Below, one piece after another: positions 30,572-50,856 of a DNA stretch of 64,000 bases; the stretch's first letter is position 1, and every line of letters begins with the position of its first letter. Origin of the DNA: Anaerolineales bacterium (lineage in GTDB: Bacteria > Chloroflexota > Anaerolineae > Anaerolineales > UBA4823); the NCBI GenBank assembly GCA_020060465.1, contig JAGVAD010000017.1, forward strand, positions 1,983 to 65,982, given 5' to 3'. The position numbers and the translations under genes are program-made. Under the pieces are notes generated by a model. The model did not search any database, had not been told where the DNA came from, and saw nothing but the letters and a program-made list of their open reading frames with translations.

Positions 30572-31255
30572 CTATGCAACAGCGTTACGCGCCCGATGAA
30601 ACTCTTCGATCAATTCGGCTTCGATCTCTCGCCGCCGATTGACCAGGTAACGAAACAAGACGCCTCTAAAATGAGGTTCGGGAGCGAAACGCAGCGAAAA
30701 ACGATACTGGCCTCGGGCGCGAACAGCGCTTAAGATGGTGCCACGTGCAGAAACAGCGCCGGTTGGCAATTCGGTCGCGATGTGTATTATCGCGCCTGGC
30801 TTTAGCGCTGGAGTATATTGGTCGGGCAAAACCCGCAAGCCGGCGCCGATCATCGAGATGTCTGCCAGTTCTGCCGCTGTTTGATCCTTGCCAATCAAGA
30901 TATTGACCGGCAGCGGCGCTTTTGGTTCCACGCGCGCCAGCATTCGCTCGCCTAACTTAACGCCCAGATAAGAAAAGTTGTATAAATCCGCCAACCCTTG
31001 CAAAAGATCCACCGACAAGACCTGCGCAGAGAATGGCTCGAAGAAGTCGCTGCCCAGCACTTTTGTATGGCGATCTCTCTGCAATAGCACGATCTCGGCG
31101 CCATCCGTCCGAACCTGCGCATGATCTCCATAAACGCCCGCCAAATATCCCTTACAGACAAAAGGCGCCCCCTTGTACGTGTTCAACATTTCGATCGGCT
31201 GTTGGTTTTCCATCATCAACCGCAGATCTGAAATGATCTGAAGATTGGTTGTCAT
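30572..31255 (-). CDS. PilZ-domain protein (YcgR-like two-barrel architecture)
   Basis: RxxxR (RMLAR, aa 104-108) and DxSxxG (DISMIG, aa 132-137) at canonical spacing. The N-terminal half is beta-rich and PilZN-like. Confidence 0.72.
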   Translation of the reverse strand: MTTNLQIISDLRLMMENQQPIEMLNTYKGAPFVCKGYLAGVYGDHAQVRTDGAEIVLLQRDRHTKVLGSDFFEPFSAQVLSVDLLQGLADLYNFSYLGVKLGERMLARVEPKAPLPVNILIGKDQTAAELADISMIGAGLRVLPDQYTPALKPGAIIHIATELPTGAVSARGTILSAVRARGQYRFSLRFAPEPHFRGVLFRYLVNRRREIEAELIEEFHRARNAVA

Positions 31256-32636: not shown

Positions 32637-34217
32637 ATGCGCATCCGGTTGAAGGAAGACTTAATCATTGCGGGTGCAACGATGGTTTTTTATTTATCGC
32701 TGGGGGGGTATCTCAGTCTCTATCGTCATTACCTGCCCTACGACAGCCTGGCTCGACTGGTGAGCGCCTGGTTGGTTTTCTATGGAACAGAGACCAAACT
32801 GGCTTCCATCGGTTTTGTCTGGCCGCCAATCCCCACTCTGGCAATCCTCCCCTTCACCATTTTCCCCTGGATGGTCGAGAGTTGGTTCGCAGTGGTAGCA
32901 GTTTCAGCAGTAGCTACCGCTCTGTCTTGTGTGGCGATCAATCACCTGGCTGCCTTATGCGGCTTTCCCTCTGGCTGGCGCTGGGCAGTGGTCTTTTTAT
33001 TCGCAATCAACCCTCTTATCATCGTCTTCGGCATCAATGGAATGAGCGAAGCGCTGTTGATGTTGTTTTTGCTTACTGCCTGTTACTGGCTGGTGCGCTT
33101 CTGGCAAAGCGACCGTAATACTTACCTGATTATTTCCGGCAGTTTCTTTGGGTTGTTGCCTCTGGTGCGATATGAATTTATCTTGATCACTTTGTGGAGC
33201 GGTTTGATTCTGGTGGCGCTGTGCTGGAAACGGCGCAACAGCTTCTCCGAGTTTGAGTTCCGAGAGTTCTTAGAGGGCCGGCTGCTGGCTTATGGTTCGC
33301 TGGCGATTTATCCCTTGTTTCTGTGGGCAGTGGCCAATTGGTTCATTATGGGGAATCCGCTCTATTTCCTATTCAACAATCGCAGCGCGGTCAGCCTGGC
33401 GGAGATGCAGCTTTCGGGCTATGTTAACCTGGTCACCAGTTCCTCGTATTCTTTCCGCCTGGTTTTTGGGGTCTGGATTTCCCTGTTCTTCCTGGGAGCG
33501 ATTGGCAGCCTGACAGCCCTTATCATCGGCTGGCGGCAGAAATCGCTCTTTATGAACTATCTTGCGCTGATGTTCTGGATCATCCCGGCAGTACAGTTCA
33601 TCCTGCTCATCCAGCGCGCCAATGTGCCGCTGTTGCGATATTTTGTCATGTCCATCCCGTTGGGGTTCGTGATCGCTCTAGTTGCGGCGTATCGTCTCTT
33701 GCCGATTGTATCGAATGATCGGCGCGGGAAGATGCTCTTTTTCGGTGTGTTCATTTTCCTTACCATTGCCTCCAATGTCGTGTCATGGATGACATTGGAA
33801 AGATACCCCTATCAGGACATCGAGCGGGAGTCCTGGAGAGGCATCACCACCAAAGAACCGCTGGACAATAGAAACTTCGATCAAGCTTACCAGATTGGCC
33901 AACTCTTGCCGAATATCATCCCTGCCGGCTCGCGAGTGTTGATTGATACCTACCAATTTGGCTTTGGCATTATGCTGGGGGCGAAAGACCATGCGCTATT
34001 CTTGGATTTCACCGACCCCAACTATGAGGAGGCGCTCAAAAATCCACCAGCTTATGTAGATTATCTCATTCTGCCACGCCCTGAGCAACGCGGCGCGCTA
34101 TATGCGATCAATATCGCCCAAAAGAAGCTTTATTCAGAAGGCGCGTCCTGGGCGGAATGGTTGGACGTGCTTCCTACTACAGATTTGGGATGGAAACTAT
34201 ATAAGGTCAAAAGATGA
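32637..34217 (+). CDS. Polytopic GT-C-type membrane glycosyltransferase-like protein (ArnT/PMT_2-like; family uncertain)
   Basis: About 11-12 TM helices followed by a soluble C-terminal domain of about 130 aa. Located directly upstream of a polyprenyl-phosphate GT2. Confidence 0.55.
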   Translation: MRIRLKEDLIIAGATMVFYLSLGGYLSLYRHYLPYDSLARLVSAWLVFYGTETKLASIGFVWPPIPTLAILPFTIFPWMVESWFAVVAVSAVATALSCVAINHLAALCGFPSGWRWAVVFLFAINPLIIVFGINGMSEALLMLFLLTACYWLVRFWQSDRNTYLIISGSFFGLLPLVRYEFILITLWSGLILVALCWKRRNSFSEFEFREFLEGRLLAYGSLAIYPLFLWAVANWFIMGNPLYFLFNNRSAVSLAEMQLSGYVNLVTSSSYSFRLVFGVWISLFFLGAIGSLTALIIGWRQKSLFMNYLALMFWIIPAVQFILLIQRANVPLLRYFVMSIPLGFVIALVAAYRLLPIVSNDRRGKMLFFGVFIFLTIASNVVSWMTLERYPYQDIERESWRGITTKEPLDNRNFDQAYQIGQLLPNIIPAGSRVLIDTYQFGFGIMLGAKDHALFLDFTDPNYEEALKNPPAYVDYLILPRPEQRGALYAINIAQKKLYSEGASWAEWLDVLPTTDLGWKLYKVKR

Positions 34218-35164
34218 ATAAGCCCCAGATTTCCGTTGTGCTACCTGTTTACAATGAAGCGGAAGCTGTGGAGGAAGTGGTGCAGCAGGTAATTGAGACG
34301 CTCTCCACAGCCGGGAAGTCTTTCGAAGTGCTGGCAATTAACGACGGTTCTCAGGATTGTTCTGAAGAGAAATTGCTAAAGTTACAAAGAGAATATCCTC
34401 AATGGCTGCGTGTCGCCGCTCATGTGCATAACAAAGGCAACGGCGCAGCCTTGCGCACCGGCATCCGCCTGGCGCGAGGAGAGATCGTCGTGTGCATGGA
34501 CTCGGATGGGCAGCATCGCGCAGCAGAAATGCTCAACCTGCTGGCGAAGATACCGCCGTATGATATGGTCGTCGGCGCGCGGACACGCGACTACGCTGGC
34601 AAATGGTATCGAAATTTAGGCAATCATTTTTATAACTGGTTTGCCAGTTGGCTGACTCAATATCCCATTCTTGACCTGACATCGGGTTTCCGAGCTATGC
34701 GGCGGGAGGCAGTGCTGCATTTCCTGCCCTTGTTTCCGGCCGGTTTTTCTTCCCCCACTACCCTCACCATGGCTTTTTTGAAAGCCGGCTATAGCGTCGC
34801 TTATGTACCGATCCAGGTATACCCACGTACACTGGGCAAGAGCAAAATCAACGTCCTAAAAGATGGGCGTAAATTTGTCCTGATTATCCTGCGCATGATC
34901 ATGCTCTATGACCCCTTGCGCATCTTCTTACCGATCTCCAACTTTCTTCTGTTCTTGGGCCTGGCGGCCATGGCAGCCGGTGTTTGGGCGGCGGGGAGAT
35001 TGGTTGTGCCGGGCTCTTCGGTGGTATTATTCATTGCCGGGGTATTAGCCATGCTGTTGGGTTTGGTATCCAGCCAGATCTCCAATGCAACGATCACTTA
35101 TCACGGCGACGAGTTCGTTAAACTATACGAAGCGCCGTTTAGCGGGGCGAATGAAGAAAGCTGA
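34214..35164 (+). CDS. GT2 polyprenyl-phosphate sugar synthase (DPM1/GtrB/ArnC-like)
   Basis: ISVVLPVYNEAE, INDGSQD and MDSDGQH (DXD) motifs. Two C-terminal TM helices. Overlaps the previous gene by 4 nt. Confidence 0.85.
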   Translation: MNKPQISVVLPVYNEAEAVEEVVQQVIETLSTAGKSFEVLAINDGSQDCSEEKLLKLQREYPQWLRVAAHVHNKGNGAALRTGIRLARGEIVVCMDSDGQHRAAEMLNLLAKIPPYDMVVGARTRDYAGKWYRNLGNHFYNWFASWLTQYPILDLTSGFRAMRREAVLHFLPLFPAGFSSPTTLTMAFLKAGYSVAYVPIQVYPRTLGKSKINVLKDGRKFVLIILRMIMLYDPLRIFLPISNFLLFLGLAAMAAGVWAAGRLVVPGSSVVLFIAGVLAMLLGLVSSQISNATITYHGDEFVKLYEAPFSGANEES

Positions 35165-36185
35165 GCCGCCAGCCAAAAACTGGCGAGCTGTCACTACATT
35201 TCTTCGCGCAACTTTTTTGCTGGCTTTGGTAGCGCCGCTTGGCTATGCCATTTATCAGCAGTGGGCAGAAGTCCGCCAGGTTCTGGCGCAGGTCAACTGG
35301 CTCCAGGCGTCGCTTGGCTGGGTGATCTTGATGCTGGCGCAGCCCTTCATGGGCGCCATCTCCTGGATCGTGTTGCGCTATTTGAAACAGGATTTTGCTT
35401 ACTGGCGTATTACTGCGGTCTATTTCATCTCGCAAGCGGCAAAGTATCTGCCTGGCGGCATCTGGGCTTTTCCGGGACGTGTAGCGGCTTATCAAGCCAT
35501 TGGCGTAGAAAAATCCGCCTCGGTGATCAGCCTTGTGCAAGAAGTTGGGGCACTTTTCTTAGGAGCTGCGACGTTGGGAATCATTGGCATTTTCAACGGG
35601 CTGCTCATCGAGAACTGGGTGCGCACGGCGGCACTTGCCGGGGCGTTCGTATGTCTGGCAGCAACGTTGTTCTCGCAACATCCCCTGACATGGAAAGCGC
35701 TCGCACAGGCGCGACGCGCCTTGGAGGCGCTCAAATTCAAACTCAAAAGCGGCAAGCGGCAACCAACAGAAGAAGCTGACCAAGTGATCAGCGCGCCTCG
35801 AGGCGAAAGCCCGCCGGGGACATTCAGTATCGCCTGGGCACCAGCCTCTTTGCTAACCAGCCTGATGTTCTGGCTATTGGTAGGCGTCGGTTTTTACTAT
35901 CTGGCGATCAGCGTCGCGCCGCAACTGCGGCTGCTCTCCTGGCTGCAAGCAACCAGCATTTTCGCCCTGGCATGGTGCGCCGGCTTTGTCATCGTCCTGG
36001 CGCCAGCCGGCCTGGGGGTGCGCGAAGCGGCGCTCTCCGGCCTGTTAGCCGCCTACATTCCGCTTAGCGAGGCCTTGAGCGTAGCGCTGATGGCGCGTTT
36101 GTGGTGGACGTTGGGGGAAGCGCTCTTTATCTTGATTTCGCTCGCTTGGGCGTCAACTAATGCGCATTGGAATGTTCGTCGCTGA
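35151..36185 (+). CDS. Lysylphosphatidylglycerol-synthase-TM-region / UPF0104 flippase-like membrane protein
   Basis: About 8 TM helices and an AKYLPGGIWAFPGRV motif. Start set at MKKAEPP, which overlaps the GT2 stop. Confidence 0.65.
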   Translation: MKKAEPPAKNWRAVTTFLRATFLLALVAPLGYAIYQQWAEVRQVLAQVNWLQASLGWVILMLAQPFMGAISWIVLRYLKQDFAYWRITAVYFISQAAKYLPGGIWAFPGRVAAYQAIGVEKSASVISLVQEVGALFLGAATLGIIGIFNGLLIENWVRTAALAGAFVCLAATLFSQHPLTWKALAQARRALEALKFKLKSGKRQPTEEADQVISAPRGESPPGTFSIAWAPASLLTSLMFWLLVGVGFYYLAISVAPQLRLLSWLQATSIFALAWCAGFVIVLAPAGLGVREAALSGLLAAYIPLSEALSVALMARLWWTLGEALFILISLAWASTNAHWNVRR

Positions 36186-36234
36186 CTTGGGCTTCGCAGT
36201 CCGCAGGCGAAGATTTATTCATCTCAGAGCGAAA

Positions 36235-37986
36235 TCACTTCTGCACCAAAGGGAGAAACAAATTATTTGGCCCAGTGATCGGCAGGCTGAAGGCAGGGAA
36301 CAATTGCTGATCGGTGTTTCCAGTAATGGGGTCGCGCAAATAATAGTCGCCGGTCAGGTTGCCTGGAACGCGCATGGTCAGGCGATAACGCAACCACAGC
36401 CCGCTGCTGACACCAGGTAAGAGGCGCAGGCGCAAGGAGTAGTTCTTCACCCCGCCGCCAAAGAGAGGCTCGCTGGCTTCATAGATGGGATGGACTGTTA
36501 CCATACAAGGGGTTGAGCAGCCATTGGCTTTGACCAGACTGCCCACCGGGTAAGAGGTCCAAACGCCGCCTGGCGAGGCGTTTGTAACTGTGATGGCATT
36601 TGAGAAGCTCACCGTCAGGTACATCTGTTCGGCGTCGGCGCCGGTGTAAGAAACGCTGAAGGTCAGGTCCTTCTCCTGGTCAGGATAAAGCTCCAACGGA
36701 GCGGGCGCTGCCGTCACGTCAATCGGGTACGGCTGGACGGTAAAAGCAGGCAAAAGGCTTGAGGTGAAGAAACCCAATAAATAGGTGTGATCTTTTATAC
36801 GCAGCGTGTAGGAAACTTGCTCGGAGATGGTTGAGGATGGCGGAGCTATTAACGAGTAATTCAGATCGCCTACGCCAGCGCCATACGGCAACGACGAGAG
36901 GCTGACATCCTGGCTGGGAGTTTGGGTGTGGCTGTCATAGACGGTCTCTCCATTTTGCATCAATTCCAGCGACCCCATCACGACATCATTCACTGGATTG
37001 CCCCAATTGGAAATTTTCAAGCTGACGGTGATTGGCTCGCCGGAATAGAATGCTGTGCGCTCGCGGTTGGCGGCGTCTTTGACGCGAAAATTGCTAATGC
37101 TGATATAGGGGGCGGGAAAATTCGGGTCCACACGGCGCATGAAAAACCAATAAGGATCACTTGGATTGAGATCCAAAGAGACATCTCGCTTGATGGCGCG
37201 GCGAGGCAAAGCCCACAGATCGGAAATGGAGGGATTAGCCAAACCATCGTTCGGGCTAAAACCCACTGCGGCGGAATAGCCGGCAGTCTGCACGTTGGCT
37301 CGCACGGTTGGGTCCATAGACCCATCGCCATAAGGATAGGCAAAAAAGCGGGTGGGGTTTTGTGGGAGATGGGTTTGGATATCCTGGCGGGATTGATTGA
37401 GCTGATATTGCTGCTGCGCAGAACTCAGGCCGGTCAAAGCCAGGTGGGACACTGTGTGCGACTCGATGGCAAAACCGTCTTGATATAAACTAGCCACTTC
37501 AGGCCAGATTAGGTGATAAGCCGGCGGTTCGGGAGGATAAGGCTGCCAATCCTGGTTGTCCTGACGCTGCTCGTCTGTTTCAGCCACTTTCCCGGTGATG
37601 ATGAAGAATGTGGCGCTCATGTTCCGCTCTTTTAAGATCGGCGCGGCGTAATCGAACAACCCTTGAAAGCCGTCATCGAAAGTCAGGATGATGGGTTTCT
37701 CCGGCGGCTGTCCAACGCCCTGGGTGTAGTCCATGTAATCATCCAGACCGATCGTCTGATAGCCATAAGCTTGCAGTACGTCCATCTGGCGCGCAAATTG
37801 ATCTGCGGTCACGTACCATTCCGTAGGGGCAGTCTGGTCAATTTTATGATAAGCCAGGATGGGGATGTTGATATCGAACGGCGACTGCGGATCCAGCAAA
37901 GCACGCGCCAACGCCCGGCTATTTGCCTTCATCGGCGCCAGAGAGAGCAGCGCAATTACAATACCTAAGAACCAGCGGGTTTTCAT
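36235..37986 (-). CDS. Secreted CE4 (NodB-homology) polysaccharide deacetylase with a C-terminal beta-rich extension of about 300 aa
   Basis: Signal peptide (MKTRWFLGIVIALLSLAPMKA). ILAYHKI. TFDDG (motif 1). HTVSH (motif 2). The ATGA start/stop overlap couples it to the synthase gene. Confidence 0.85.
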   Translation of the reverse strand: MKTRWFLGIVIALLSLAPMKANSRALARALLDPQSPFDINIPILAYHKIDQTAPTEWYVTADQFARQMDVLQAYGYQTIGLDDYMDYTQGVGQPPEKPIILTFDDGFQGLFDYAAPILKERNMSATFFIITGKVAETDEQRQDNQDWQPYPPEPPAYHLIWPEVASLYQDGFAIESHTVSHLALTGLSSAQQQYQLNQSRQDIQTHLPQNPTRFFAYPYGDGSMDPTVRANVQTAGYSAAVGFSPNDGLANPSISDLWALPRRAIKRDVSLDLNPSDPYWFFMRRVDPNFPAPYISISNFRVKDAANRERTAFYSGEPITVSLKISNWGNPVNDVVMGSLELMQNGETVYDSHTQTPSQDVSLSSLPYGAGVGDLNYSLIAPPSSTISEQVSYTLRIKDHTYLLGFFTSSLLPAFTVQPYPIDVTAAPAPLELYPDQEKDLTFSVSYTGADAEQMYLTVSFSNAITVTNASPGGVWTSYPVGSLVKANGCSTPCMVTVHPIYEASEPLFGGGVKNYSLRLRLLPGVSSGLWLRYRLTMRVPGNLTGDYYLRDPITGNTDQQLFPAFSLPITGPNNLFLPLVQK

Positions 37987-40900
37987 TCAACAGAATCCGG
38001 TTGCGGCGTATTGGCATTCTCGGTGACAGGGACTCCTTCGTAAAGACCATGTTCGGTCTTCTCCCAAAAGTGCGGGCGGGTGAGCAATTGCCCAAAACCT
38101 TTCCAGGCGCCAATGCTGGCTAAGCCCCAATAGAGAGGAGTGAGCAAAGCGTATTTGACCATCCCATAATAGCCGCGCCGCAGCGCGCCGGCCACATTCA
38201 TGTAAGTGAATGCAAAGTTGCCGATAAAGAGACAAATCGCGCCCAGATAAAAGATCGCGCCAGGGAAAATCTTTTGGATGAGCTGCCATTGCACCAAAAA
38301 CCATAACGTGGTCAACAGCCAGTAGACCGGGTTAAGCAACGCAGCAAAGAAGGTGCCGCCAATCACAAATTGAAAGCCCAGAAAAGCCTTAAAGCCAATT
38401 TCACGGATCAGCTTCGCCGGGTTGCGCATGTGAACCAGCCAGGTCTGGATGTAACCCTTGATCCAGCGCGAGCGCTGGCGGATCCAGTTATAGATCTGGC
38501 TGTTAGCTTCTTCATAGGTGGTGCTGTCAACAATCGCCGTCTTATAGCCGCGCTTATACAGGCGGATGCCCAAATCGGCATCCTCGGTGACGTTATATGG
38601 GTCCCATGCGCCTACCTCGATCAAAGCTTCGCGGCGGAAGTGATTGGAGGTGCCGCCAAGAGGGATTGGCGCGCCGCTGGCATCCAGTCCTGGCAGGAAA
38701 AGATCAAACCACATCGAGTATTCGACGGTGAACCAGCGGGTGAGCAGGTTTTGATTGCGGTTGTAGTAATTCAACTTGGACTGGATGCAAACCACATCCG
38801 GCGGCGCTTTGCTGAAAGCGACGACGATCTTTTTCAACTGATCCGGCTCAGGCAGGTCTTCTGCGTCATAGATGACCACATAATCGCCCCTGGCGTGGAT
38901 CAGGCCGTAATTACAGGCTTTGGGCTTGGTTTTCGGCTGTCCATAAGGCACAATGATGCCGTGGAAATGGGAGGGGGGGTTCCAACGATAGAACGCCTGA
39001 ATTGTCTCCTGATCGTCCGCTTCCATCAAGATTTTGATATCCAGCTTGGCTTGCGGATAATCCAGTTTGCGCAGCGAATTGAGCAACTCCACCAACACTT
39101 CGGCTTCACGATAAACCGGAATGAGAATGGTGTAAATTGGCAGGTCGCGGTCATCTAACTTGCGAATATCTTCTTCTGTCACCGGCACTTCCAGATCGCG
39201 GGATAAGGCGCGGTAGATCAGGTAGAACTTATACGTAGAGAAGGATAAATAGAAAGCTGTGAAAATCAGATTGATCGTGATCAAATAACTGACATAGTCG
39301 AATAGCAGCCAGGCAACTGAAATAACCAGGAAAATGAGCAAGGCAATCTGCTGGCCTCGGCTCAATACACGGTAGGCCGAATCTTGCGGCGAGCGTTCCA
39401 GTAGCTCTGAAATAGAACGCGCCAGATAATGGTCACTATACAAGCGATCCAGGGCGGCATCCAGATCATTTTCGGTGACCAGCACCGGGGTGATGGGCTC
39501 GCCCAAAGCCTCATGGGCAAAATCCAGCGCCTGATTATCCAACGGATCCACAACAGCCAACAGGATGCGCCCATCCTGCCTGCCGATGGGGAGAACCCCA
39601 TTCTGCCGCGCGGCTTGTGGGTCAATGCGTTGCGCCGTTTGCCGATCTATCTGCACTTCTTCCAGCCCATAGAACGGCAATCCGGACTGCTCCGCAAGCG
39701 CGTGATAGACCTGTTCCCAGGTCACATAGCCGCGATGAACCAGAGCGTGCCCAAGCCGAATGCCGGTGCGCTGCGCATAACCCAAGGCGTCATTCAACTG
39801 AGCGCGAGTGATCAGGCCCTCCATCAAGAGGTAGGTACCAATGTTTCGTCGCCCCAGGTGGCGTTGAATGGCATCCTTCAACTCTCGGCGTGTGACCAGG
39901 GCCGGAATGATTTGGCGTTTCAGGGTTTTCTCAAGAGCAGTCTGGGCGGCTTCATATAAGGGATTGGCAAAGGCGACGCGCAGCTTATCACCCTGGAACG
40001 CCACCGGCAGGGCGGAAAGTTGCTGAGCCGTCTCCTGGTCAATCAATGTAGCCGCGGAAAGATCAACCGGATCGTGGACAGTCACCCGCTCGATGGGTTT
40101 TCCCAACGGATCAATGACCTGAACCAGGCGTTCTTCCAAATCCAGGTGAAGGATGGGCAACCCCAAGAGGCGGGAATACGCCTGAACCAGTTGCGCCTGA
40201 TCCAGCCCGCTGGAGCGCCAGATGGCTTCATCCAGCGGCATGTGCAACTCCACATACTCATTCAGCGCCTGGGTTGCCTGGGTGTGGGTAATATAGCCAT
40301 TCTCCACCAGGCGGGTGGTCAACGCCTGGGCTGGCGAAAGGAGCGTACCCGCAGCTTGAACCCCGACCCAGCGCTCCAAAGCAGCAGTAATGGCTGCACG
40401 TGGGGCAATCACCGGACGGACGCGCTTTCCACAAGCCTGCTCTGCGGCGCGCAAGCCAGCCACATCCAATGGGTCGGCGATGACCAGCCACAATTCGTTT
40501 GCGCCAGACCAAATTGGCAACATACTATGCTCAAGCGCCAGACGAGAGGGAATTTCTGCGATGAGCTTTTCATCAAAGCGGACATGATCCAGGCGAATGT
40601 GGGGCAAGCCGGTTTGCAAGCTAAGCGCCTCGGCCATGTCCGCATCATCTAACAAACCTTCTGCCACCAGTTGCGTCCCCAGGCGCGGATCCAGGGCATG
40701 GTTATGGGATAACACTTTCTCCATTTGCTCTGGGGCAACCAGACCCAGGCGCAGCAGGATATTGTCCAAAGATGGCATTGTTTGAAGCGCTTCTCGGGGA
40801 GGTCGGTCGGATAAATGAGCCAAATGCGCTTCCAGAATCTCCCGCGGTATTAACCGCGGCGTTACTTTCAAACGGGTCAGCGCCTGCGCCAGTTTCACGA

Positions 40901-41945
40901 CCTCTGGGTTGGGTTGAGACATCCCTAATACAAGATCATCGCCCTCCACGCGCAAGGGGATCATCTTGAAGCGGCGCGCCACTTTGAGCGGGATGAGGTT
41001 TTCGACCGCGGCGTTATCCGTTATCCTGGTTTCTATCTGCGTTTTTGAGGCATGGGACAGAGCGCGCAACCAGTCATTGTCCGAAATCAGCCCTCTTTCA
41101 ATGAGAATCGAGGCTATCGGGCGGTGGGTCTGTCGGCTGGCGGCGCGGCTGATCTGGAGATCCAGATCGGTGAGTTTGCCGGTCTTCATCAGCCAATGAA
41201 TGGCTTCCTGATCGTATTTCGCCGGATTTGGCTGCCCGGTCAGGTAGATTTTTCGATAATAGCGATCCCACAAGTCATAAGGGCAAACAATTGGCTGCAC
41301 TGGCGTTCCAACGATCTGAGACAGCTCAGCCAGGCGATCTACGTCTTCGATCCCAGCCAGACCCACCACCAGAACGCCATCCAGCCACCATAGCGGTAGG
41401 GCGCGACGCTCCTGCGCCGCCTCCCAGGGGATCAGCCCAGCCAGTTCAGGCGTTGGCTCGAGTCCAGATGACCGCAGATGTGGGATACCAAACAATAAGC
41501 CGGTGGCTTCAGCCAGCGCCTGCTCATCGGTCAATCCGAGACGGCGCACCGCCTGCTCCGGGGTAACGTTTGCGCTGCGTTGTACAGCCGCCAATTGTTC
41601 GAGGCCCGAATCATCCAGATAACCGAGTAAATAGAGGATGCGTTCCAAACCCGGGCGCTGCACCTTTTTGCTCTCGCCGCGATAGAAACGATCTAACGCA
41701 TCCCATAACTCTGGATAATTGACTTGATAGGCGCGCACTGGCCGCCGACAAATGGTCTGTAATTCGCGCAGTCTTTGCTGATCGCAGGCGTCAGCGCAAG
41801 CAATCACCAGCTCGTTCTTCTCCAGCCAGAGCGGGGCAGCCAAATACTGACGCGCCGCCTCTTCTGGAAGTATTCGCAAGGCGAATGGATCAGGTTCGAC
41901 GCCATCTAAACGAATAAAGGTGGGAGGAGCTTGCGCAACGATCAT
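37983..41945 (-). CDS. Processive family-2 glycosyltransferase (exopolysaccharide synthase) fused to about six N-terminal T2SS-E N-terminal / MshEN-like modules
   Basis: The C-terminal third has 2 TM helices, a GT2 core (LIPVYREAE; YDAED; TED; QRSRW = QxxRW) and about 4 more TM helices. The N-terminal 865 aa contain repeated GSPII_E_N-like units (G[LI]P..., ...LPL/LPI..., ...V....DPLD). These carry MshEN-type motifs, for example RLGTQLVAEGLLDDADMAEALSLQ. Confidence 0.85.
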   Translation of the reverse strand: MIVAQAPPTFIRLDGVEPDPFALRILPEEAARQYLAAPLWLEKNELVIACADACDQQRLRELQTICRRPVRAYQVNYPELWDALDRFYRGESKKVQRPGLERILYLLGYLDDSGLEQLAAVQRSANVTPEQAVRRLGLTDEQALAEATGLLFGIPHLRSSGLEPTPELAGLIPWEAAQERRALPLWWLDGVLVVGLAGIEDVDRLAELSQIVGTPVQPIVCPYDLWDRYYRKIYLTGQPNPAKYDQEAIHWLMKTGKLTDLDLQISRAASRQTHRPIASILIERGLISDNDWLRALSHASKTQIETRITDNAAVENLIPLKVARRFKMIPLRVEGDDLVLGMSQPNPEVVKLAQALTRLKVTPRLIPREILEAHLAHLSDRPPREALQTMPSLDNILLRLGLVAPEQMEKVLSHNHALDPRLGTQLVAEGLLDDADMAEALSLQTGLPHIRLDHVRFDEKLIAEIPSRLALEHSMLPIWSGANELWLVIADPLDVAGLRAAEQACGKRVRPVIAPRAAITAALERWVGVQAAGTLLSPAQALTTRLVENGYITHTQATQALNEYVELHMPLDEAIWRSSGLDQAQLVQAYSRLLGLPILHLDLEERLVQVIDPLGKPIERVTVHDPVDLSAATLIDQETAQQLSALPVAFQGDKLRVAFANPLYEAAQTALEKTLKRQIIPALVTRRELKDAIQRHLGRRNIGTYLLMEGLITRAQLNDALGYAQRTGIRLGHALVHRGYVTWEQVYHALAEQSGLPFYGLEEVQIDRQTAQRIDPQAARQNGVLPIGRQDGRILLAVVDPLDNQALDFAHEALGEPITPVLVTENDLDAALDRLYSDHYLARSISELLERSPQDSAYRVLSRGQQIALLIFLVISVAWLLFDYVSYLITINLIFTAFYLSFSTYKFYLIYRALSRDLEVPVTEEDIRKLDDRDLPIYTILIPVYREAEVLVELLNSLRKLDYPQAKLDIKILMEADDQETIQAFYRWNPPSHFHGIIVPYGQPKTKPKACNYGLIHARGDYVVIYDAEDLPEPDQLKKIVVAFSKAPPDVVCIQSKLNYYNRNQNLLTRWFTVEYSMWFDLFLPGLDASGAPIPLGGTSNHFRREALIEVGAWDPYNVTEDADLGIRLYKRGYKTAIVDSTTYEEANSQIYNWIRQRSRWIKGYIQTWLVHMRNPAKLIREIGFKAFLGFQFVIGGTFFAALLNPVYWLLTTLWFLVQWQLIQKIFPGAIFYLGAICLFIGNFAFTYMNVAGALRRGYYGMVKYALLTPLYWGLASIGAWKGFGQLLTRPHFWEKTEHGLYEGVPVTENANTPQPDSVE
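38451..39143 (-). other. Domain region: GT2 catalytic core (aa 935-1165 of the synthase)
   Basis: D, DxD (DAED), TED and QRSRW motifs in canonical order. The C-terminal tail after the last TM helix is only about 35 aa, so there is no PilZ domain. Confidence 0.8.
39351..41945 (-). other. Domain region: about six tandem MshEN/T2SSE_N-like modules (aa 1-865 of the synthase)
   Basis: Approximate module boundaries are aa 10-90, 100-235, 245-380, 390-528, 537-697 and 699-838. The best motif matches are at aa 421-444 (nt 40614-40685) and aa 700-753 (nt 39687-39848). Confidence 0.7.
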
Positions 41946-41948
41946 GGA

Positions 41949-42254
41949 TCAGTCTTCAGAATCCGAGCGCTCCGAATAGGTCTTTAACAGAGCCTCGCGC
42001 TCCTGACGCGCCCGCTGTTGGCGTTTTTTCACGGTCATGTATAAGCCGAAGTCAGAAATCATATAGATCACGGTGACCAAACCGATCAACAACACCGGCA
42101 AGGTAAAATATCCCAGGAAAATCGCCAGGAAAAGCGTAACCCACAACACCAAGATCATGACCACCCGACCGAGGATGACCAACGTCACCCAGAAATCCGT
42201 GGCCGGATTACGTTCCAGGTCATGGTTCTGATCTTCGCGGCGTCCCTGATCCAT
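41949..42254 (-). CDS. Small 2-TM membrane protein with a basic/acidic C-terminal tail (hypothetical)
   Basis: 101 aa, with two hydrophobic helices at about aa 21-70. Its stop lies 3 nt before the synthase ATG. Confidence 0.6.
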   Translation of the reverse strand: MDQGRREDQNHDLERNPATDFWVTLVILGRVVMILVLWVTLFLAIFLGYFTLPVLLIGLVTVIYMISDFGLYMTVKKRQQRARQEREALLKTYSERSDSED

Positions 42255-42288
42255 ATCTGCCTCCCCGGTTGTTCAGAACTTGCCCTTC

Positions 42289-43161
42289 TTAGTCCGCCGG
42301 GCGAATCTGAGTGGCTTCGTGCAATTGTGCATATTGCACAAAAGGACGACCGGTGGTCTCTGCGACGTGCAAAGCAGCTTCGGCGGCGCGCATCAGTTCT
42401 TCCTCAGTAACGCCATCGGCTGGAAATTGGGCGATGCCAATGTGCAGCGGAACACGCAGTTTTCGCTGCACGCTTTCCAACAGACGAGCGACGACCTTTT
42501 GCGCCCCTTCGAGATTCGTTTCGGGCAGGATGGCGCCAACCTTTTCGCCGCTGAAGGGGATATCCATCGCCCTCAACGAGGCGGGCAGTAATTCAAGCAT
42601 CTGGCGTTTCATCTGTTCCAGTTCGCTGGCACCCAGTTCCTCTTGCAAGCTTTGCTGGTTTCCGATTTTGAGCAGCAAGACACACAAATATTTATCGTAA
42701 CGCTGGCTGCGCAACACCTCCGAGCGCAACGTCTGATACACATAGCGATAACGCATGATACCGGTATCCGGATCATACAGGCGCAACTCTTCGATCAGCT
42801 TTTGATCGTTGCCAATCTGGCGGTAGAGGCGATGGATCTCCGCAGCCGTCCATCCACCCAGCCAGGCGGTAATGACCAAGGCGACCGCCATGACGGTCAG
42901 AGGTAAAACAATGTCAATTGTCATACCTTTCAACCCCGCCTGGACAAAGAAATAGACGATAAAAGAAAGCAGCGCGGCAACCCAGTTCGAATATCGAAAC
43001 AAGCCGGTGAGCGCAAAGGCAACAGTGAAACCTAACAACGCCAGCGAAAGCGGCAGATTGGCTGGGTCAGCAAATAACAGACCCATCATGCTGAAGATCA
43101 GCCAGACGCCCAGGATAGCGGGCAGAAAGCGCAGTGTACGGCTAAAGGGTTGGAGACTCAT
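42289..43161 (-). CDS. 4-TM membrane protein with a degenerate (probably inactive) GGDEF domain
   Basis: GGDEF-fold blocks (YDPDTGIMRYRY...; ...GAILPET...; AEAALHVAETTG). The signature is SGEKV instead of GG(D/E)EF. The DxDxFK metal site is replaced by LLKIGN. An RxxD-like RAMD lies just upstream. Confidence 0.75.
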   Translation of the reverse strand: MSLQPFSRTLRFLPAILGVWLIFSMMGLLFADPANLPLSLALLGFTVAFALTGLFRYSNWVAALLSFIVYFFVQAGLKGMTIDIVLPLTVMAVALVITAWLGGWTAAEIHRLYRQIGNDQKLIEELRLYDPDTGIMRYRYVYQTLRSEVLRSQRYDKYLCVLLLKIGNQQSLQEELGASELEQMKRQMLELLPASLRAMDIPFSGEKVGAILPETNLEGAQKVVARLLESVQRKLRVPLHIGIAQFPADGVTEEELMRAAEAALHVAETTGRPFVQYAQLHEATQIRPAD

Positions 43162-45409
43162 GGCTCTTCCCTGCCTTTCGACGATTCATGAATTCGGAAA
43201 CTGCAATCAACAGCAGAAGCACCAGTGTAACCAGGAATAGACCACCTGCCAGCCAGGCGACCCAGCGCGGCGTTGACGGTTCGCTTTGGGTTGAGGGCGT
43301 AATAGGCGCAGGCGCGGCTGGCTTATGGATATAAGCGGTGGTGATGGCGCCATCGGCGTCTAAGATAGCCAGATCGCCGTTCAGGTCGCGGATTAAGGCC
43401 GGGTCTGTCAACGCCCTGGCCGCCCACTCAACTCCTTGAGAGTCGCTGCCGGTGACGACCAGGCGGGGTTTGCCGTCCGAGGTCAGCGCTGCCTGCACAT
43501 AACCGGTTGAGCCGTTCGGCGGCAAGATGCGAGCAATCTGCGCATTCGGCTTTGGATCGTTAGAGCCTTCCACAAAAGGCAGGGGTAACAATGCGTTCAG
43601 CCGGGCAATGGCGCTGTTCTCCTTGGGCGCGCCCAACAAGATCTGATAAGGGGTTTGGACGGAGGTTTCGGTTTGATCTGGGCGAATGACACGCGGCGCC
43701 AGGGTTTCGCCTTCGGCGGCGCGACCAATACGCCCAGCGATGCCGACGATGGCATTTGCAATAGTCAAATCGGGCGAGACAGGCGCCACAAAAGCCAGAT
43801 CGGAGAGATCCGGGCGACCGATGAATCCAAATGGGTAATCAGACAGGTTGAGGGCGAGCATCGCCGGGCCGCCCGGCAGATTCAAGCGAGTATCCGAAAA
43901 TACCACCACCCAGGCCTCGGCGATATATTCTTCATCGCATTCTTGATCGTCCTCATAATTCTCTATCAACTCGATGCTGGTTGTAACCGTGATGCGGTTC
44001 TCGCCGATCTTGAGTTGTCTGGCAGGAATGATAAATCTGGAATGCCCATCGTCGGCGTTATCATTATCGAGCAAGATGCTGCCAATGGGCGAGCCGTTGA
44101 CGGAGACGGTGAGCGAGGATTTTTGCTGATGAAGCAGCTTAGAATGAGCAAAATGCAAATCCAGGCTGGCTTCAGTAAGCACCTGCCATTGCATGGGCAG
44201 CGAGATGATGAAATTCAACGATTGTTGGCGGGTGCCGGAAGCGGTTTCATCTCGATACCCTAGCTCCTCCAGGGTGATCACCTGTTTGAATTCATTATCT
44301 TCGCCGCTCGGCTCAGGCGTATGCAAAACGATGCCCAACTGACCGCGTAAACGAGGATAAACGGCTGCGCTTGCCAGCGCCCGAGCGGCGGCAAGCAGAC
44401 CCTCATCGGTCGGCCCGGTAACGACCATTTCCACTGCTGTGGGGTCATCGCTGGAATTCTGCATCCATAGCACACCGCTGGAGGGATCCACCTGGACGCC
44501 ATCTTCCGACTTCAACCTGACCTGTTCTCCATCTACAAAAACGAAGGGGAATTCTCGCGAGCGCAATACTCCCAGCCGGTCGGCCTGTCCGACATACATG
44601 ACATCGCCGCCTGGTTGGGATAGAGCAGCAAACTCGGTTTCGTTCAAAACCTGAAAGGTCAGTGTGCGCCAGGCGGCCAGTTGTCCAAGTTTGGCGCTGA
44701 TCAAAGCCAGGGCGTTCATCTCGGCAAGGGTCGCATCATCTGGAATGACAAAAGTCAACGAGTTTTCTATCAGCCCGCTGTTATCCAGGATCGGCGCAGG
44801 ATAATCGCCCAGGTTCGCTTGTGGAACGGCCAGATCATAAGAGAGTTCAAAGAAAGAGCTGCTTTGAATGGTGGCCCATGTGGCGGGATTGTTCGGGTCC
44901 TCGCAACGGTCGTCATGAATGCCCATGTACAGCACGATGCGCAGTTGGTTGTAGCCCTTATCAATCTGATCTTCGGGAATGCTCACCGTCAGGCTGCCGC
45001 CGTCCGCGTTTTCCGGCGTCAGCAGGATGCTACCCAGGCGGACGCCGTTCCAGTCAACAGCCAGGCTGGAGTAGCGTTCCAAAACGGGCGAGTGTTTAAA
45101 TTCCACGGTGAAAGCGTTGCCAGGGCGAACATCCCAGGCGTCGGGCCAATTAAATGTGTAAGAGCGGGTGGCTGAAATCCCCTGCAGGGTCTCATCTCTG
45201 GTATATCCGAGATCTGCCAAAGTCAGGGTCTTGGTCAGCACACGCGGCGCGCTGAATTGCCCGTTCGTCGGTTGGCGTGAGGGCAAGATTTCCGAGCGGT
45301 AGCCAATCGCCACGGGCGGCGCCGTGGACGCTGCCAAAATCGGCGTTGGCCTTGCGCCCAAAACAGAAACGATTGTAAAGATCACCAGCCAGAGCACTTT
45401 GTGTGCCAT
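43142..45409 (-). CDS. BcsB-like (cellulose-synthase subunit B family) periplasmic/extracytoplasmic protein with a C-terminal TM anchor
   Basis: Two BcsB-type repeats (LTLADLGY...LAVDWNGVRLGSILL...NQLRIVL...CEDPNNPATW; ITLEELGY...LTVSVNGSPIGSILL...NRITV...). C-terminal TM helix WVAWLAGGLFLVTLVLLLLIAV. Start set at MAHKVLW, with GGAGAGGTGAT upstream. Overlaps the next gene by 20 nt. Confidence 0.8.
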   Translation of the reverse strand: MAHKVLWLVIFTIVSVLGARPTPILAASTAPPVAIGYRSEILPSRQPTNGQFSAPRVLTKTLTLADLGYTRDETLQGISATRSYTFNWPDAWDVRPGNAFTVEFKHSPVLERYSSLAVDWNGVRLGSILLTPENADGGSLTVSIPEDQIDKGYNQLRIVLYMGIHDDRCEDPNNPATWATIQSSSFFELSYDLAVPQANLGDYPAPILDNSGLIENSLTFVIPDDATLAEMNALALISAKLGQLAAWRTLTFQVLNETEFAALSQPGGDVMYVGQADRLGVLRSREFPFVFVDGEQVRLKSEDGVQVDPSSGVLWMQNSSDDPTAVEMVVTGPTDEGLLAAARALASAAVYPRLRGQLGIVLHTPEPSGEDNEFKQVITLEELGYRDETASGTRQQSLNFIISLPMQWQVLTEASLDLHFAHSKLLHQQKSSLTVSVNGSPIGSILLDNDNADDGHSRFIIPARQLKIGENRITVTTSIELIENYEDDQECDEEYIAEAWVVVFSDTRLNLPGGPAMLALNLSDYPFGFIGRPDLSDLAFVAPVSPDLTIANAIVGIAGRIGRAAEGETLAPRVIRPDQTETSVQTPYQILLGAPKENSAIARLNALLPLPFVEGSNDPKPNAQIARILPPNGSTGYVQAALTSDGKPRLVVTGSDSQGVEWAARALTDPALIRDLNGDLAILDADGAITTAYIHKPAAPAPITPSTQSEPSTPRWVAWLAGGLFLVTLVLLLLIAVSEFMNRRKAGKSHESPTL

Positions 45410-45569
45410 ATCACCTCTCCCCTGGTTGACAGTTGAATAATCTCTCCGATCTCTCTGAGCAAACTTTATGAAAACCGCAACAGATTGACCGGGCCAGATT
45501 GATTTGTCAACCTGAACTTGATCCCGCAGGCGTTTATTCAATTATACATATTAAACATGCAATTGTGGT

Positions 45570-45587
45570 GAATTGAAAGGTCAATTC
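45570..45587. promoter_or_regulatory. Inverted repeat GAATTGA-aagg-TCAATTC in the AT-rich region upstream of the EPS operon
   Basis: Perfect 7-bp arms with a 4-nt spacer, about 160 nt upstream of the bcsB-like start. A minus-strand TATAAT lies at 45541-45546. Confidence 0.3.
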
Positions 45588-45669
45588 AAATAATTTTGGA
45601 TTACAAATGTGTAAGCAGCGCCCAGACAAAGGGGGCAACGATCTATTGAAGGCAATGTTCCAGCCGACG

Positions 45670-46617
45670 TTAATTGACCACACCATACATTTGATCCGGC
45701 GTCAGAACCTCTGGAAAGCGAGGCCGCAGCGCCAGCCGGCTCTGATAACACAGATGACAGGCATCCGCGAAACCGCCGCGCAGAGGCAGATCGTAACTGC
45801 GCACCAGCGCAGCAGGCCCGCCGGATAAAAGCGGGGCTGCAATGGGGTGCATAAGCGGATCGTATTGGCGGATGACCTCAGCCAACGGTTGGTGATAGAG
45901 GTTGCCAATGGCGATGCCCTGGCAAAGATGGAGGTAACCGAACGGATCCACATGTAACCGTCCTGGATTTGCCAGGTCTTCGTAGGGACAGCGATCCAAT
46001 TCTTCCCACTGGGTTAGCGGAACAAGAGGGGTCAGCTTTTCGGCGGCGCGCCCACGATACATCAACCTGGCTGGCTCATCCGCTGCAATTTGACCATGCG
46101 AAGCGACCGAAGCCGTCGCTTCTGGCTGCGCAACCTGGATAAAGCCAACAGGGATGCCCAACGCCTCAGCCGCCTGGCGGGCGTTTTGCGCCTGTTGACT
46201 GACCATTTCATTGTAGTGATAGAGATCGCTGCTCACCGAAAGATCCTGGATCAGACCTGCCAGCGGCACAAGCCACAGGCGGGCGTCTTCTGGCGTGGTA
46301 GCCCAATAAGCGTTCGAGACCACCCCTACACGGAAGTCCATTTGGGCAGCTAGCTGCGCTGCTTTGAAGAGGAGCGGGGAATACAGAAACGGTTCGCCGC
46401 CCTCGAAATAGATTTCGCTAACTGTGCCTAGCTCTTGCGCCTGATGTAATATCAACTGAATATCCTGCAACGTCATCACGCCGGATTGCCAGGGACTACC
46501 CCAAACGAAGCAATGATCGCACTCAAAGGTGCATTGATAGGTCAACAAAAGGTGAAGACCATGAATATCCATATCAAAAGGGGGCAAGAAATAGCCAGAG
46601 GCTCTTCCTGCGAGCAT
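45670..46617 (-). CDS. Radical SAM protein with a Cys-rich C-terminal (SPASM/twitch-like) region
   Basis: CTFECDHC = CX3CX2C. FEGGEP. C-terminal Cys residues (CPYED...HLCQG...CHLC). The start is uncertain; an alternative is MDIHG at 46572. Confidence 0.7.
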   Translation of the reverse strand: MLAGRASGYFLPPFDMDIHGLHLLLTYQCTFECDHCFVWGSPWQSGVMTLQDIQLILHQAQELGTVSEIYFEGGEPFLYSPLLFKAAQLAAQMDFRVGVVSNAYWATTPEDARLWLVPLAGLIQDLSVSSDLYHYNEMVSQQAQNARQAAEALGIPVGFIQVAQPEATASVASHGQIAADEPARLMYRGRAAEKLTPLVPLTQWEELDRCPYEDLANPGRLHVDPFGYLHLCQGIAIGNLYHQPLAEVIRQYDPLMHPIAAPLLSGGPAALVRSYDLPLRGGFADACHLCYQSRLALRPRFPEVLTPDQMYGVVN

Positions 46618-46660
46618 GCGACGGACGGCAAGAAGATGTCTGCATCAGTGCAGCCATCAA

Positions 46661-47128
46661 TCAGCGCAGCTCTTCAGGGTATTTGCGCAAAATATCCGCA
46701 AAATCTTTCCATGCTTCTTGCAAGTTCTGATTGCGCGTGAGCAGGGCAAAATCCAGAGATTTCAACCGACCAAGGCATTCATTGGCGCGAGACAGGCGTT
46801 CTCTGGCTTGAAACTGCTGGTTGACGCCCATGAAGAGAGTAGTCAAAAAACCAAGCACGGCTGCTACGATGCAGGTCAGACGCCAGGCTGAGACATCATT
46901 GCCCCATATAGGGCCGGCAGCAGAGGTCCAAGCGGTGAGCAACGTAGTGGTCGCGGAAGAAAAGATGCCCGCAAAGCTCAGGGTGTTGTAAACCTTTTCC
47001 AAACGCGAAACATGGCTTTCGACTTTCTGTAAACTGGCGGAGACGCGCAGCGCCAGGGCTTGCAGATCGTTGGGAGAGCTTCCCGGAGGGGAGTCAGATA
47101 AACCAGCAGAATTGAGGGTCGGATCCAA
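46661..47128 (-). CDS. Hypothetical 2-TM protein
   Basis: N-terminal helix, two TM helices (aa about 50-100), and a C-terminal helical tail. No family confidently recognised. Confidence 0.45.
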   Translation of the reverse strand: MDPTLNSAGLSDSPPGSSPNDLQALALRVSASLQKVESHVSRLEKVYNTLSFAGIFSSATTTLLTAWTSAAGPIWGNDVSAWRLTCIVAAVLGFLTTLFMGVNQQFQARERLSRANECLGRLKSLDFALLTRNQNLQEAWKDFADILRKYPEELR

Positions 47129-49980: not shown

Positions 49981-50856
49981 ATGGACAAGTATCAAGTGCT
50001 GATCGTCGAGGATGATAAAGACACAGCCAATTTTTTTGATCTGGTATTCAATCTGCTGGGGTTTCGCTGTCTCAAAGTCCATTCGGCTGAATCGGCGCTG
50101 TCGGCGCTTGAGAATTTGCTGCCAGACATGATTTTGTTAGATTTACATCTCGATCATCCTTACAGCGGCGAACAGATTTTGCTGAAGGTTCGATCCGATC
50201 GTCGCTTTGATGCGACGCGGGTGGTGGTGATCACCGCCTACCCAGTGATGGCGCGAGCGGTGACGGATCTGGCCGATCTGGTGTTGATAAAACCGGTTGA
50301 TGTTGAACAGCTAAAACTGCTTACCGGACGTTTATTGGGGATGGAAATCCGGCCTCGGCAGTATTTCTTCCGCGATCCAACCACGGATTTATTCAACCAG
50401 GAATTTTTCCACACGCGCCTGGAACATGCTTATGAAAGGAGCAAACGCCGCGAGGATTTTCATTACGGCGTTGTGGCGCTGGCAATTCATGTTGAAACCG
50501 AGACCGCCAAGACGATCCCTTCGCCGGTGCTTAAGCAAATCTATAGATGGGTCGCTGAGCGACTGAAGGGCAGTTTTCGTCCCACCGACACGCTGGCCCA
50601 TTTTGAAGGCAACCAGTTCGCCAGCTTACACGAAGAATTAAAACGCCCAGAAGATATCGAGGTAATCGTCCAGCGGATGAGAGAGGCGCTATCTCAACCG
50701 TGCATTGTGGCGGATCAAGAATACACAGTCTATCCATGCATTGGGGCAGCGACTAACAGCGCCTCTGACCAAAGCGCCCAGGATGTCCTCCTGGCGGCTC
50801 AACAAGCCTCGAAGGCTGCGCCGCAATTGGATACTCAATCTTCAAACATAGATTGA
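49981..50856 (+). CDS. Response regulator: REC domain + degenerate GGDEF domain
   Basis: REC domain (VEDDKD, LLDLHLD, LIKP). The GGDEF-fold C-terminus has EGNQF in place of GGDEF and RPTD (RxxD) five residues upstream. The metal-site DxD is replaced (ALAIHVE). Confidence 0.78.
   Translation: MDKYQVLIVEDDKDTANFFDLVFNLLGFRCLKVHSAESALSALENLLPDMILLDLHLDHPYSGEQILLKVRSDRRFDATRVVVITAYPVMARAVTDLADLVLIKPVDVEQLKLLTGRLLGMEIRPRQYFFRDPTTDLFNQEFFHTRLEHAYERSKRREDFHYGVVALAIHVETETAKTIPSPVLKQIYRWVAERLKGSFRPTDTLAHFEGNQFASLHEELKRPEDIEVIVQRMREALSQPCIVADQEYTVYPCIGAATNSASDQSAQDVLLAAQQASKAAPQLDTQSSNID

Follow-up and report, generated by a model that had tools for sequence, protein, structure and literature searches.

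A protein of 1320 amino acids (aa) in which six tandem MshEN modules precede a glycosyltransferase family 2 (GT2) core is encoded in a stretch of 64,000 nucleotides (nt) from an Anaerolineales bacterium (GenBank assembly GCA_020060465.1, contig JAGVAD010000017.1, positions 1,983 to 65,982 of the forward strand). The whole stretch is referred to as the window; coordinates are counted from its first letter, and features lie on the minus strand (-) unless marked (+). MshEN is one of two widespread receptor domains for cyclic diguanosine monophosphate (c-di-GMP). The protein (37983..41945) is rather likely to be a membrane-embedded processive exopolysaccharide synthase that has a BcsB-like partner and is switched on by c-di-GMP through its sixth, membrane-proximal module alone. 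Judged from its sequence, it belongs to the MshEN-GT2 family, with an array that is expanded and mostly degenerate, and it is an enlarged form of a known regulatory design, not a six-site sensor. What is new here is the size of the array and the gradient of motif decay, the regulatory principle being already established.

From the N to the C terminus the synthase comprises six MshEN/GSPII modules (aa 1-845, here U1 to U6), two transmembrane helices, a processive GT2 core and C-terminal transmembrane helices. Pfam assigns MshEN (PF05157) to six stretches of the whole protein (E 2.5e-84) and GT2 families (Glyco_trans_2_3) to its C-terminal third. When the array was cut at aa 1-95, 96-240, 241-388, 389-532, 533-697 and 698-845, each of the six pieces alone exceeded the PF05157 gathering score (40.0-76.3 bits against 23.1 bits). 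A preliminary description of this DNA had proposed a repeat array at aa 1-865 (nt 39351-41945) and had identified the repeats as MshEN. The array is present with exact coordinates, the nine peptides quoted from the protein all occur at the residues given for them, and the identification is borne out by the six Pfam matches, by the significance of every module taken singly and by the predicted fold. The count of six tandem modules stands for the PF05157 units; however, U1 is an MshEN C-subdomain only, so that five, not six, possible nucleotide-binding subdomains are present. Neither Pfam nor NCBIfam models gave a match to a PilZ domain in the synthase, in agreement with the proposal that MshEN takes the place of PilZ on this enzyme. 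The identical 1320-aa protein is found in NCBI and JGI, and MDI6695838.1, in the 90%-identity cluster of the synthase, is named ‘glycosyltransferase family 2 protein [Anaerolineales bacterium]’. The G+C content is about 55%.

MshEN domains that bind c-di-GMP contain two in-register 24-residue motifs with a five-residue spacer and bind one ligand (PMC5013675), and position 1 of the motif was later widened to R/K/L (PMC11731258). The motif tested here was (R/K/L)LGxx(LVI)(LVI)xxG(LVI)(LVI)xxxxLxxxLxxQ. Its register was taken from the NCBIfam model NF053729 (cut-off 38 bits) together with an alignment to MshE, and it was scored per module in the window protein and ten full-length orthologues (11 sequences). 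U6 (aa 698-845, 39411..39854) reaches 76.3 bits with PF05157 and, above the cut-off, 66.1 bits with NF053729. Its tandem motifs at aa 701-724 and 730-753 (nt 39687-39845) read NIGTYLLMEGLITRAQLNDALGYA and RLGHALVHRGYVTWEQVYHALAEQ; they match 8/11 and 9/11 strict positions and 10/11 and 11/11 relaxed positions, and both have glycine at position 3, which is kept in all 11 sequences. The tandem-motif layout that had been noticed at aa 700-753 is thus found in full in U6. Replacement of this very glycine in Vibrio cholerae MshE (VcMshE; G11L and G40I) abolished ligand stabilisation (PMC5013675). The MshEN domain of NfrB likewise binds c-di-GMP, and its motif mutants lose function, most strongly G491L, in which the corresponding glycine is replaced; the effect of c-di-GMP on NfrB was interpreted in that study as allosteric activation (PMC8669469).

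Comparison with relatives points to the same module. Collinear proteins of 1304-1334 aa, with all six modules and 40-89% identity to the window protein, are encoded in ten Anaerolineae genomes, one of them that of the cultured Flexilinea flocculi TC1. Among 34 non-redundant six-module proteins, glycine at position 3 in both motifs combined with at least 9/11 relaxed positions in both was found for U6 in 30, for U4 in six, for U2 in one and for U3 and U5 in none. The earlier suggestion that several near-consensus motifs would bind several c-di-GMP molecules finds no support in that form, since only in U6 is the pair conserved. Across 53 aligned homologues, which have between one and six modules, G732 and Q753 never vary, and conservation is 90% or more at G703, L706, L717, L721, R730 and L735. 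The invariant and near-invariant residues of U6 are ligand-contacting positions, namely G3, L6 and L17 of motif I and R1, G3, L6 and Q24 of motif II. No part of the array is conserved as well as the N-subdomain of U6: its mean pairwise identity across nine orthologues is 0.61, against 0.26-0.36 in the remaining N-subdomains, 0.27-0.31 in U1 to U3 and 0.44 in the U5 C-subdomain. The value for the GT2 core is 0.75.

Homologues with a single MshEN domain (from Hyphomicrobiales, Rickettsiales, Telmatospirillum and Thermotogaceae) align to aa ~700-1300, i.e. to U6 and the GT2 part, which argues that U6 is the ancestral conserved sensor and that the outer modules are additions with binding motifs apparently decaying lineage by lineage. 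An exhaustive HMMER search with aa 1-865 on 1.84 billion 50%-identity representatives returned 62 proteins at E <= 1e-30. Counted with our own hidden Markov models, at least 24 representatives (50% identity) have six modules and GT2, and no array of more than six modules occurs among them. With aa 698-1320 as query, more than 8000 proteins were obtained at E <= 1e-20; in the 120 best homologues, 27 have one MshEN module, 29 have two, 56 have three and seven have four, some of the last group probably being cut off at contig ends. The six-fold array had been described as highly unusual. Its count is the largest found, but it belongs to a conserved Anaerolineae family, and on this GT2 family two to four modules in a row are common. 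An origin of the array by recent doubling of three modules as one block was considered and rejected: profile-profile scores between modules are low, their identity is 11-32%, and U1-3 show no pairing with U4-6. The duplications are therefore old.

The predicted structures agree with these assignments. An AlphaFold2 (AF2) model of aa 1-865, built from an 18-sequence alignment, has a mean predicted local distance difference test score (pLDDT) of 83.8 and a predicted template modelling score (pTM) of 0.58. In it, U2 to U6 each consist of a four-helix N-subdomain followed by an alpha/beta C-subdomain of the order H-H-E-E-H-E-H. The best Foldseek match to the array model is the N-domain of V. cholerae MshE with c-di-GMP (5htl; template modelling score 0.87 on the target, root-mean-square deviation 2.0 Å), and the top matches also include PilF GSPII-B. 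The best sequence matches of the array in the PDB are all MshEN/GSPII domains: Thermus thermophilus PilF (6f8l) ranks first (E 4.5e-28), and V. cholerae MshE (5htl) and several PilB proteins are also among them. A second model, of aa 698-1320, reaches pLDDT 89.6 and pTM 0.90; this one confident arrangement suggests that U6 is fixed in position relative to the synthase.

U6 immediately precedes the first transmembrane helix and is homologous to the membrane-nearest MshEN of the widespread MshEN-GT2 family. In the mechanism proposed here, one c-di-GMP molecule would be bound by both 24-residue motifs of U6 (aa 701-724 and 730-753), and the signal would reach the catalytic domain by way of the long helix at aa 825-851 and the transmembrane helices. 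Polymerisation would be activated in a manner analogous to the MshEN-dependent activation of Escherichia coli NfrB. We infer both the binding of the ligand and the activation of the synthase. U1 to U3 and U5 would most likely be ligand-free structural or protein-interaction units, and U4 in this lineage probably likewise; a scaffold role for the degenerate copies would be a reasonable reading.

By the motif comparison, loss of the binding motifs is complete in U1, U2, U3 and U5, and partial and lineage-specific in U4. Degraded motifs in the other modules had been noted before, and U2, U3 and U5 indeed have no glycine at position 3 in either motif, while U1 is without an N-subdomain. U1 (aa 1-95, 41661..41945; PF05157 52.5 bits) gives no NF053729 match; in the AF2 model it opens straight with the alpha/beta unit, and the same N-terminal start is seen in all orthologues. 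U2 (aa 96-240, 41226..41660; PF05157 43.8 bits) also gives no NF053729 match. Both of its degenerate motifs have E at position 3, and its N-subdomain is mostly deleted in the orthologues L007-L009. U3 (aa 241-388, 40782..41225) scores 40.0 bits with PF05157 and 24.8 bits with NF053729, below the cut-off, and has I and A at position 3 of its two motifs. The motifs of U5 (aa 533-697, 39855..40349; PF05157 47.4 bits, NF053729 23.3 bits) are degenerate as well, and its motif glycines are lost in all 34 relatives. U5 also contains an extra beta-hairpin in the AF2 model (aa 604-624), within a conserved 25-aa insertion at aa 597-624 in which G615 is invariant in the 18-sequence alignment.

U4 (aa 389-532, 40350..40781; PF05157 63.1 bits) requires separate treatment. 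The near-consensus motif reported earlier at aa 421-444 (nt 40614-40685) is confirmed as its motif II, which matches 10/11 strict positions and is thus near-perfect. In motif I (aa 392-415, nt 40701-40772), 7/11 strict positions match; it reads SLDNILLRLG..., with S392-L-D394 standing for R-L-G, so that both Arg and Gly are lost. The R-L-G in ‘NILLRLGLVAPEQ...’, noticed earlier, occupies positions 8-10 and is out of register.

It is possible, if rather unlikely, that the array is a multi-site sensor in which U6, U4 and perhaps others bind c-di-GMP and provide graded or cooperative control. The quality of U4 motif II speaks for such a sensor, as does the state of U4 elsewhere in the family: both position-3 glycines are present in L002, L003, L004 and L006 only, among the 11 orthologues, and the pair is intact in these four and in the six of 34 relatives counted above. 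The intact U4 motif pair of L003 reads RLGELLVATGLITEAQLAETLKAG and RLGERLVNLGYLDDVDLAAAFGLQ. In these sister lineages two ligand sites are probable, against one in the window protein; a multi-site array was thus probably the ancestral state and persists in certain lineages. Tandem modules that bind more than one ligand are also known from PilF, in which two c-di-GMP molecules are bound on three modules and GSPII-C binds although one of three motifs reads R-L-E (PMC11731258). In the window protein, however, U4 has lost both Arg and Gly of motif I, U2, U3 and U5 are without the position-3 glycine in both motifs, and the two PilF modules that bind do so without marked or extensive cooperativity (PMC11731258).

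The scores of experimentally characterised domains bear on the same question. With NF053729, the experimental binders VcMshE, PilF GSPII-B and PilF GSPII-C score 86.1, 63.3 and 59.7 bits, respectively, and the experimental non-binder PilF GSPII-A scores 55.1 bits (PMC11731258). U6 of the window protein scored 63.3 bits in this calibration run, U4 35.7 bits and U4 of the orthologue L003 54.5 bits. Use of the score as a classifier of binders and non-binders was rejected as not decisive, since a non-binder reaches 55.1 bits; a score by itself is therefore no proof of binding. At 33-36 bits (33.0 and 35.7 bits in two runs), U4 of the window protein lies below the cut-off and ranks under GSPII-A. 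By analogy, GSPII-A is the closest precedent for U4: it pairs a good, near-perfect motif with a degenerate one and fails to bind c-di-GMP (PMC11731258, PMC12002112).

Several observations weigh against the proposed control through U6. Motif I of U6 has N at position 1 (P in Flexilinea), not R/K/L, and ends in A, not Q, in all orthologues, and several of them have R or Q in place of G at position 10 of motif II. In four of the 34 relatives U6 falls short of the motif threshold. NF053729 fails to separate binders from non-binders, with GSPII-A at 55.1 bits against 63.3 bits for U6. In addition, U1 to U5 are kept in every six-module family member at 27-44% identity, and modules retained in all members must do something. 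One tentative proposal, for which we see only a small chance, is that the five degenerate modules are former receptors turned into a cytoplasmic scaffold, which may keep synthase-BcsB units in higher-order arrays or dock the degenerate-GGDEF and small transmembrane proteins encoded beside the synthase, while the number of ligand-competent modules (one to two, rarely three) is tuned per lineage. If so, the machine would join two kinds of c-di-GMP receptor, and the number of ligand-competent modules would be an evolvable gain control.

The deviations of U6 motif I at its first position and at the last-position Gln, and the near equality of a known non-binder with U6 on the motif model, could also mean that c-di-GMP is bound nowhere in the array. 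The array would then be a protein-interaction scaffold like GspE N1E, which binds GspL, and control, if any, would pass through the degenerate-GGDEF protein. MshEN C-subdomains are interaction modules, the EpsE-EpsL (2bh1) and GspE-GspL (4pht) complexes occur as low-rank matches in the fold search with the array, and the operon holds a conserved degenerate GGDEF protein with R..D retained. This explanation is nevertheless very unlikely: the residues of U6 that are invariant over 53 homologues are ligand-contacting positions, a pattern that a pure scaffold would not explain, and N and P at position 1 are allowed by the relaxed pattern of Wang et al. (PMC5013675). It is most improbable that the degenerate modules have partly been retuned to another ligand, e.g. 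cyclic GMP-AMP (cGAMP) or another nucleotide, since U2, U3 and U5 miss the hydrophobic and glycine positions of the known binding mode, even though VcMshEN is reported to bind cGAMP too (PMC5013675) and U5 has a conserved signature of its own: its second motif opens with P-L-D-x-A-I, and D572 is invariant, also in three- and four-module homologues.

Activation through U6 would act on an output domain that resembles the processive synthases. The two transmembrane helices (~aa 860-908, 39222..39368) were located by a hydropathy scan and appear as long helices (H166-185 and H187-218) when aa 698-1320 are modelled with AF2. They are followed by the GT2 core found by Pfam (aa 926-1170, 38436..39170), with DAED (DxD), TED at 1120-1122 and QRSRW at 1157-1161, and by the C-terminal transmembrane region (aa 1171-1320, 37986..38435; hydropathy scan), which has no PilZ. 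The GT2 part aligns to Rhodobacter sphaeroides BcsA (4hg6/5ej1), its top sequence match among solved structures, at E 1e-15, with DAED against BcsA DADH and with TED and QxxRW also aligned. Fold matches of aa 698-1320 are BcsA (4p00 best), hyaluronan synthases and chitin synthase; cellulose, hyaluronan and chitin synthase folds match equally well. Specific identities were tried and rejected. BcsA is excluded by 76.5 bits against 699 for TIGR03030 (CelA), by 50.4 against 992 for NF008558 and by the absence of PilZ, and the poly-N-acetylglucosamine synthase PgaC/IcaA by 67.8 bits against 422.3 for TIGR03937. NfrB is excluded by 167.4 bits against 1170 for NF008411, with matches confined to the MshEN part, by its reversed domain order and by its other neighbours. 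The polymer-specific NCBIfam models (CelA, PgaC, XrtG-associated GT) all remain far below their cut-offs and thus point to no particular polymer.

The synthase is the fourth of five minus-strand genes, which encode, in order, a BcsB-like protein, a degenerate-GGDEF protein, a small transmembrane protein, the synthase and a deacetylase. The BcsB-like subunit (43142..45541, 799 aa) scores 285.9 bits with PF03170 and has a C-terminal transmembrane anchor. The degenerate-GGDEF membrane protein (42289..43161, 290 aa, about four transmembrane helices) scores 42 bits with PF00990 and has SGEKV for GGDEF. The small transmembrane protein (41949..42254, 101 aa) gives no Pfam or NCBIfam match, and its gene ends 1 nt ahead of the start of the synthase gene. 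It may be a small accessory subunit, which we take to be comparable in position to PgaD-type subunits. The last gene (36235..37986), the start of which overlaps the synthase stop by 4 nt, encodes a secreted polysaccharide deacetylase of carbohydrate esterase family 4 (CE4) with a PgaB/IcaB-like N-terminal domain (PF01522 98.3 bits; TIGR03938 64.9 bits, below the cut-off).

This arrangement is shared by other loci of the family. The first four genes occur in the same order in L002, L005, L006 and L011, and L007-L009 have the BcsB-like, GGDEF-like and synthase genes in order, the small transmembrane protein not being detected there. The BcsB-like gene lies beside the synthase in seven loci (L002, L005-L009 and L011), the small transmembrane protein was found beside it by tblastn in six (L001, L002, L004, L005, L006 and L011), and the deacetylase adjoins it in L001 and L006. 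Near the shorter homologues, tblastn (E <= 1e-5) detected no BcsB-like or degenerate-GGDEF partners. Pairing of a BcsB-like gene with an XagB-like GT2 was noted earlier in iron-oxidising bacteria (PMC4643136). In every case the degenerate-GGDEF gene is located between the BcsB-like gene and that of the synthase. Its orthologues have GGGQY, DSITL, INDYY, GGERI, VGNHF, GGNYY or NATKF at the GGDEF site, and eight orthologues share without exception the Arg and Asp of a RAMD a few residues upstream, which resembles an RxxD I-site. The protein may be a PelD-like c-di-GMP receptor and not a cyclase.

A promoter and terminator scan of positions 35900-46900 gave counts equal to the shuffled-sequence level. 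Just upstream of the BcsB-like gene, a radical SAM protein is encoded at 45670..46617 (PF04055; weak YydG/viperin-like NCBIfam matches), and this gene was not found beside the operon in other loci. Three genes at 32637..36185 (+) converge on the operon from its deacetylase side. They encode a PMT_2-like membrane glycosyltransferase, a GT2 of 316 aa and an LPG_synthase_TM protein; the LPG_synthase_TM gene also adjoins the deacetylase in L001 and L006. This set may function in lipid-linked sugar modification of the same polymer. Further away, a 227-aa PilZ protein (30572..31255) scores 25.4 bits with PF07238 (cut-off 22.5) and contains RxxxR (RMLAR) and DxSxxG (DISMIGAG), so the organism does encode PilZ receptors; zero PilZ domains are listed for Anaerolinea thermophila UNI-1 by Wang et al. 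2016 (PMC5013675). A fusion of a response-regulator receiver and GGDEF at 49981..50856 (+) has the signature EGNQF and is probably another inactive cyclase.

The MshEN-GT2 synthases of Chloroflexota and Actinomycetota usually bear arrays of two to six modules. Within these arrays, the membrane-proximal module keeps its ligand site and the outer ones decay at lineage-specific rates. Such proteins provide a natural series for studying which changes abolish binding, what role is played by non-binding MshEN modules, and by what means c-di-GMP gates a BcsA-like synthase devoid of PilZ. The operon is likely to be a biofilm or sheath polymer system in Anaerolineae, filamentous bacteria that are abundant in anaerobic digesters and sediments. 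As Flexilinea flocculi TC1 is cultured, these questions are open to experiment. To our knowledge, NfrB is the sole MshEN-controlled glycosyltransferase that has been studied experimentally. A literature search, with subscription journals outside its coverage, gave no account of MshEN arrays on glycosyltransferases or of MshEN in Anaerolineae.

Individual features of the synthase can be compared with several known systems. Like BcsA-BcsB, it is a membrane-integrated processive GT2 with a BcsB-family partner and, as proposed here, c-di-GMP control. In contrast to BcsA, it has no PilZ and only two transmembrane helices ahead of the GT domain; in the alignment, the synthase has PLGGTS at the place of the BcsA FFCGS region. 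The CE4 deacetylase that is translationally coupled downstream is not a cellulose feature. NfrB shares a GT2 with DxD/TED/QxxRW under MshEN and not PilZ control, and the NCBIfam model of NfrB matches U4 (73.0 bits) and U6 (65.6 bits) over its MshEN part. NfrB, however, has a single C-terminal MshEN and the partners NfrA/YbcH, whereas the synthase of the window has N-terminal modules and a BcsB-like partner.

Tandem modules of which only part bind are found in PilF, where two modules bind and a third, degenerate one does not (PMC11731258, PMC12002112), and in the (MshEN)2-4-T2SSE proteins. The output in these proteins is a secretion or pilus ATPase, whereas here it is a glycosyltransferase, and the longest array listed in 2016 had four modules against the six described here. 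That listing (Wang et al. 2016, Suppl. Table 4) contains MshEN - Glyco_trans_2_3 (R. sphaeroides Rsph17029_0522), Glyco_trans_2_3 - MshEN (NfrB) and (MshEN)2-4-T2SSE (PMC5013675). Xanthomonas campestris XCC0678, in the alignment of the same study, has an N-terminal MshEN (PMC5013675) and may correspond to xagB, a Xanthomonas exopolysaccharide and biofilm gene (PMC3364877, PMC3609779); several homologues found with aa 698-1320 bear the JGI name ‘glycosyltransferase XagB’. The MshEN-Glyco_trans_2_3 family has the same order as the synthase, namely N-terminal MshEN, transmembrane helices and GT2 with DxD/TED/QxxRW. Its single-MshEN proteins, from Alphaproteobacteria and others, align end to end with U6 and GT2 at 33-44% identity. 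Compared with them, the synthase of the window has six modules, the extra five of which are degenerate, together with BcsB-like and degenerate-GGDEF operon partners.

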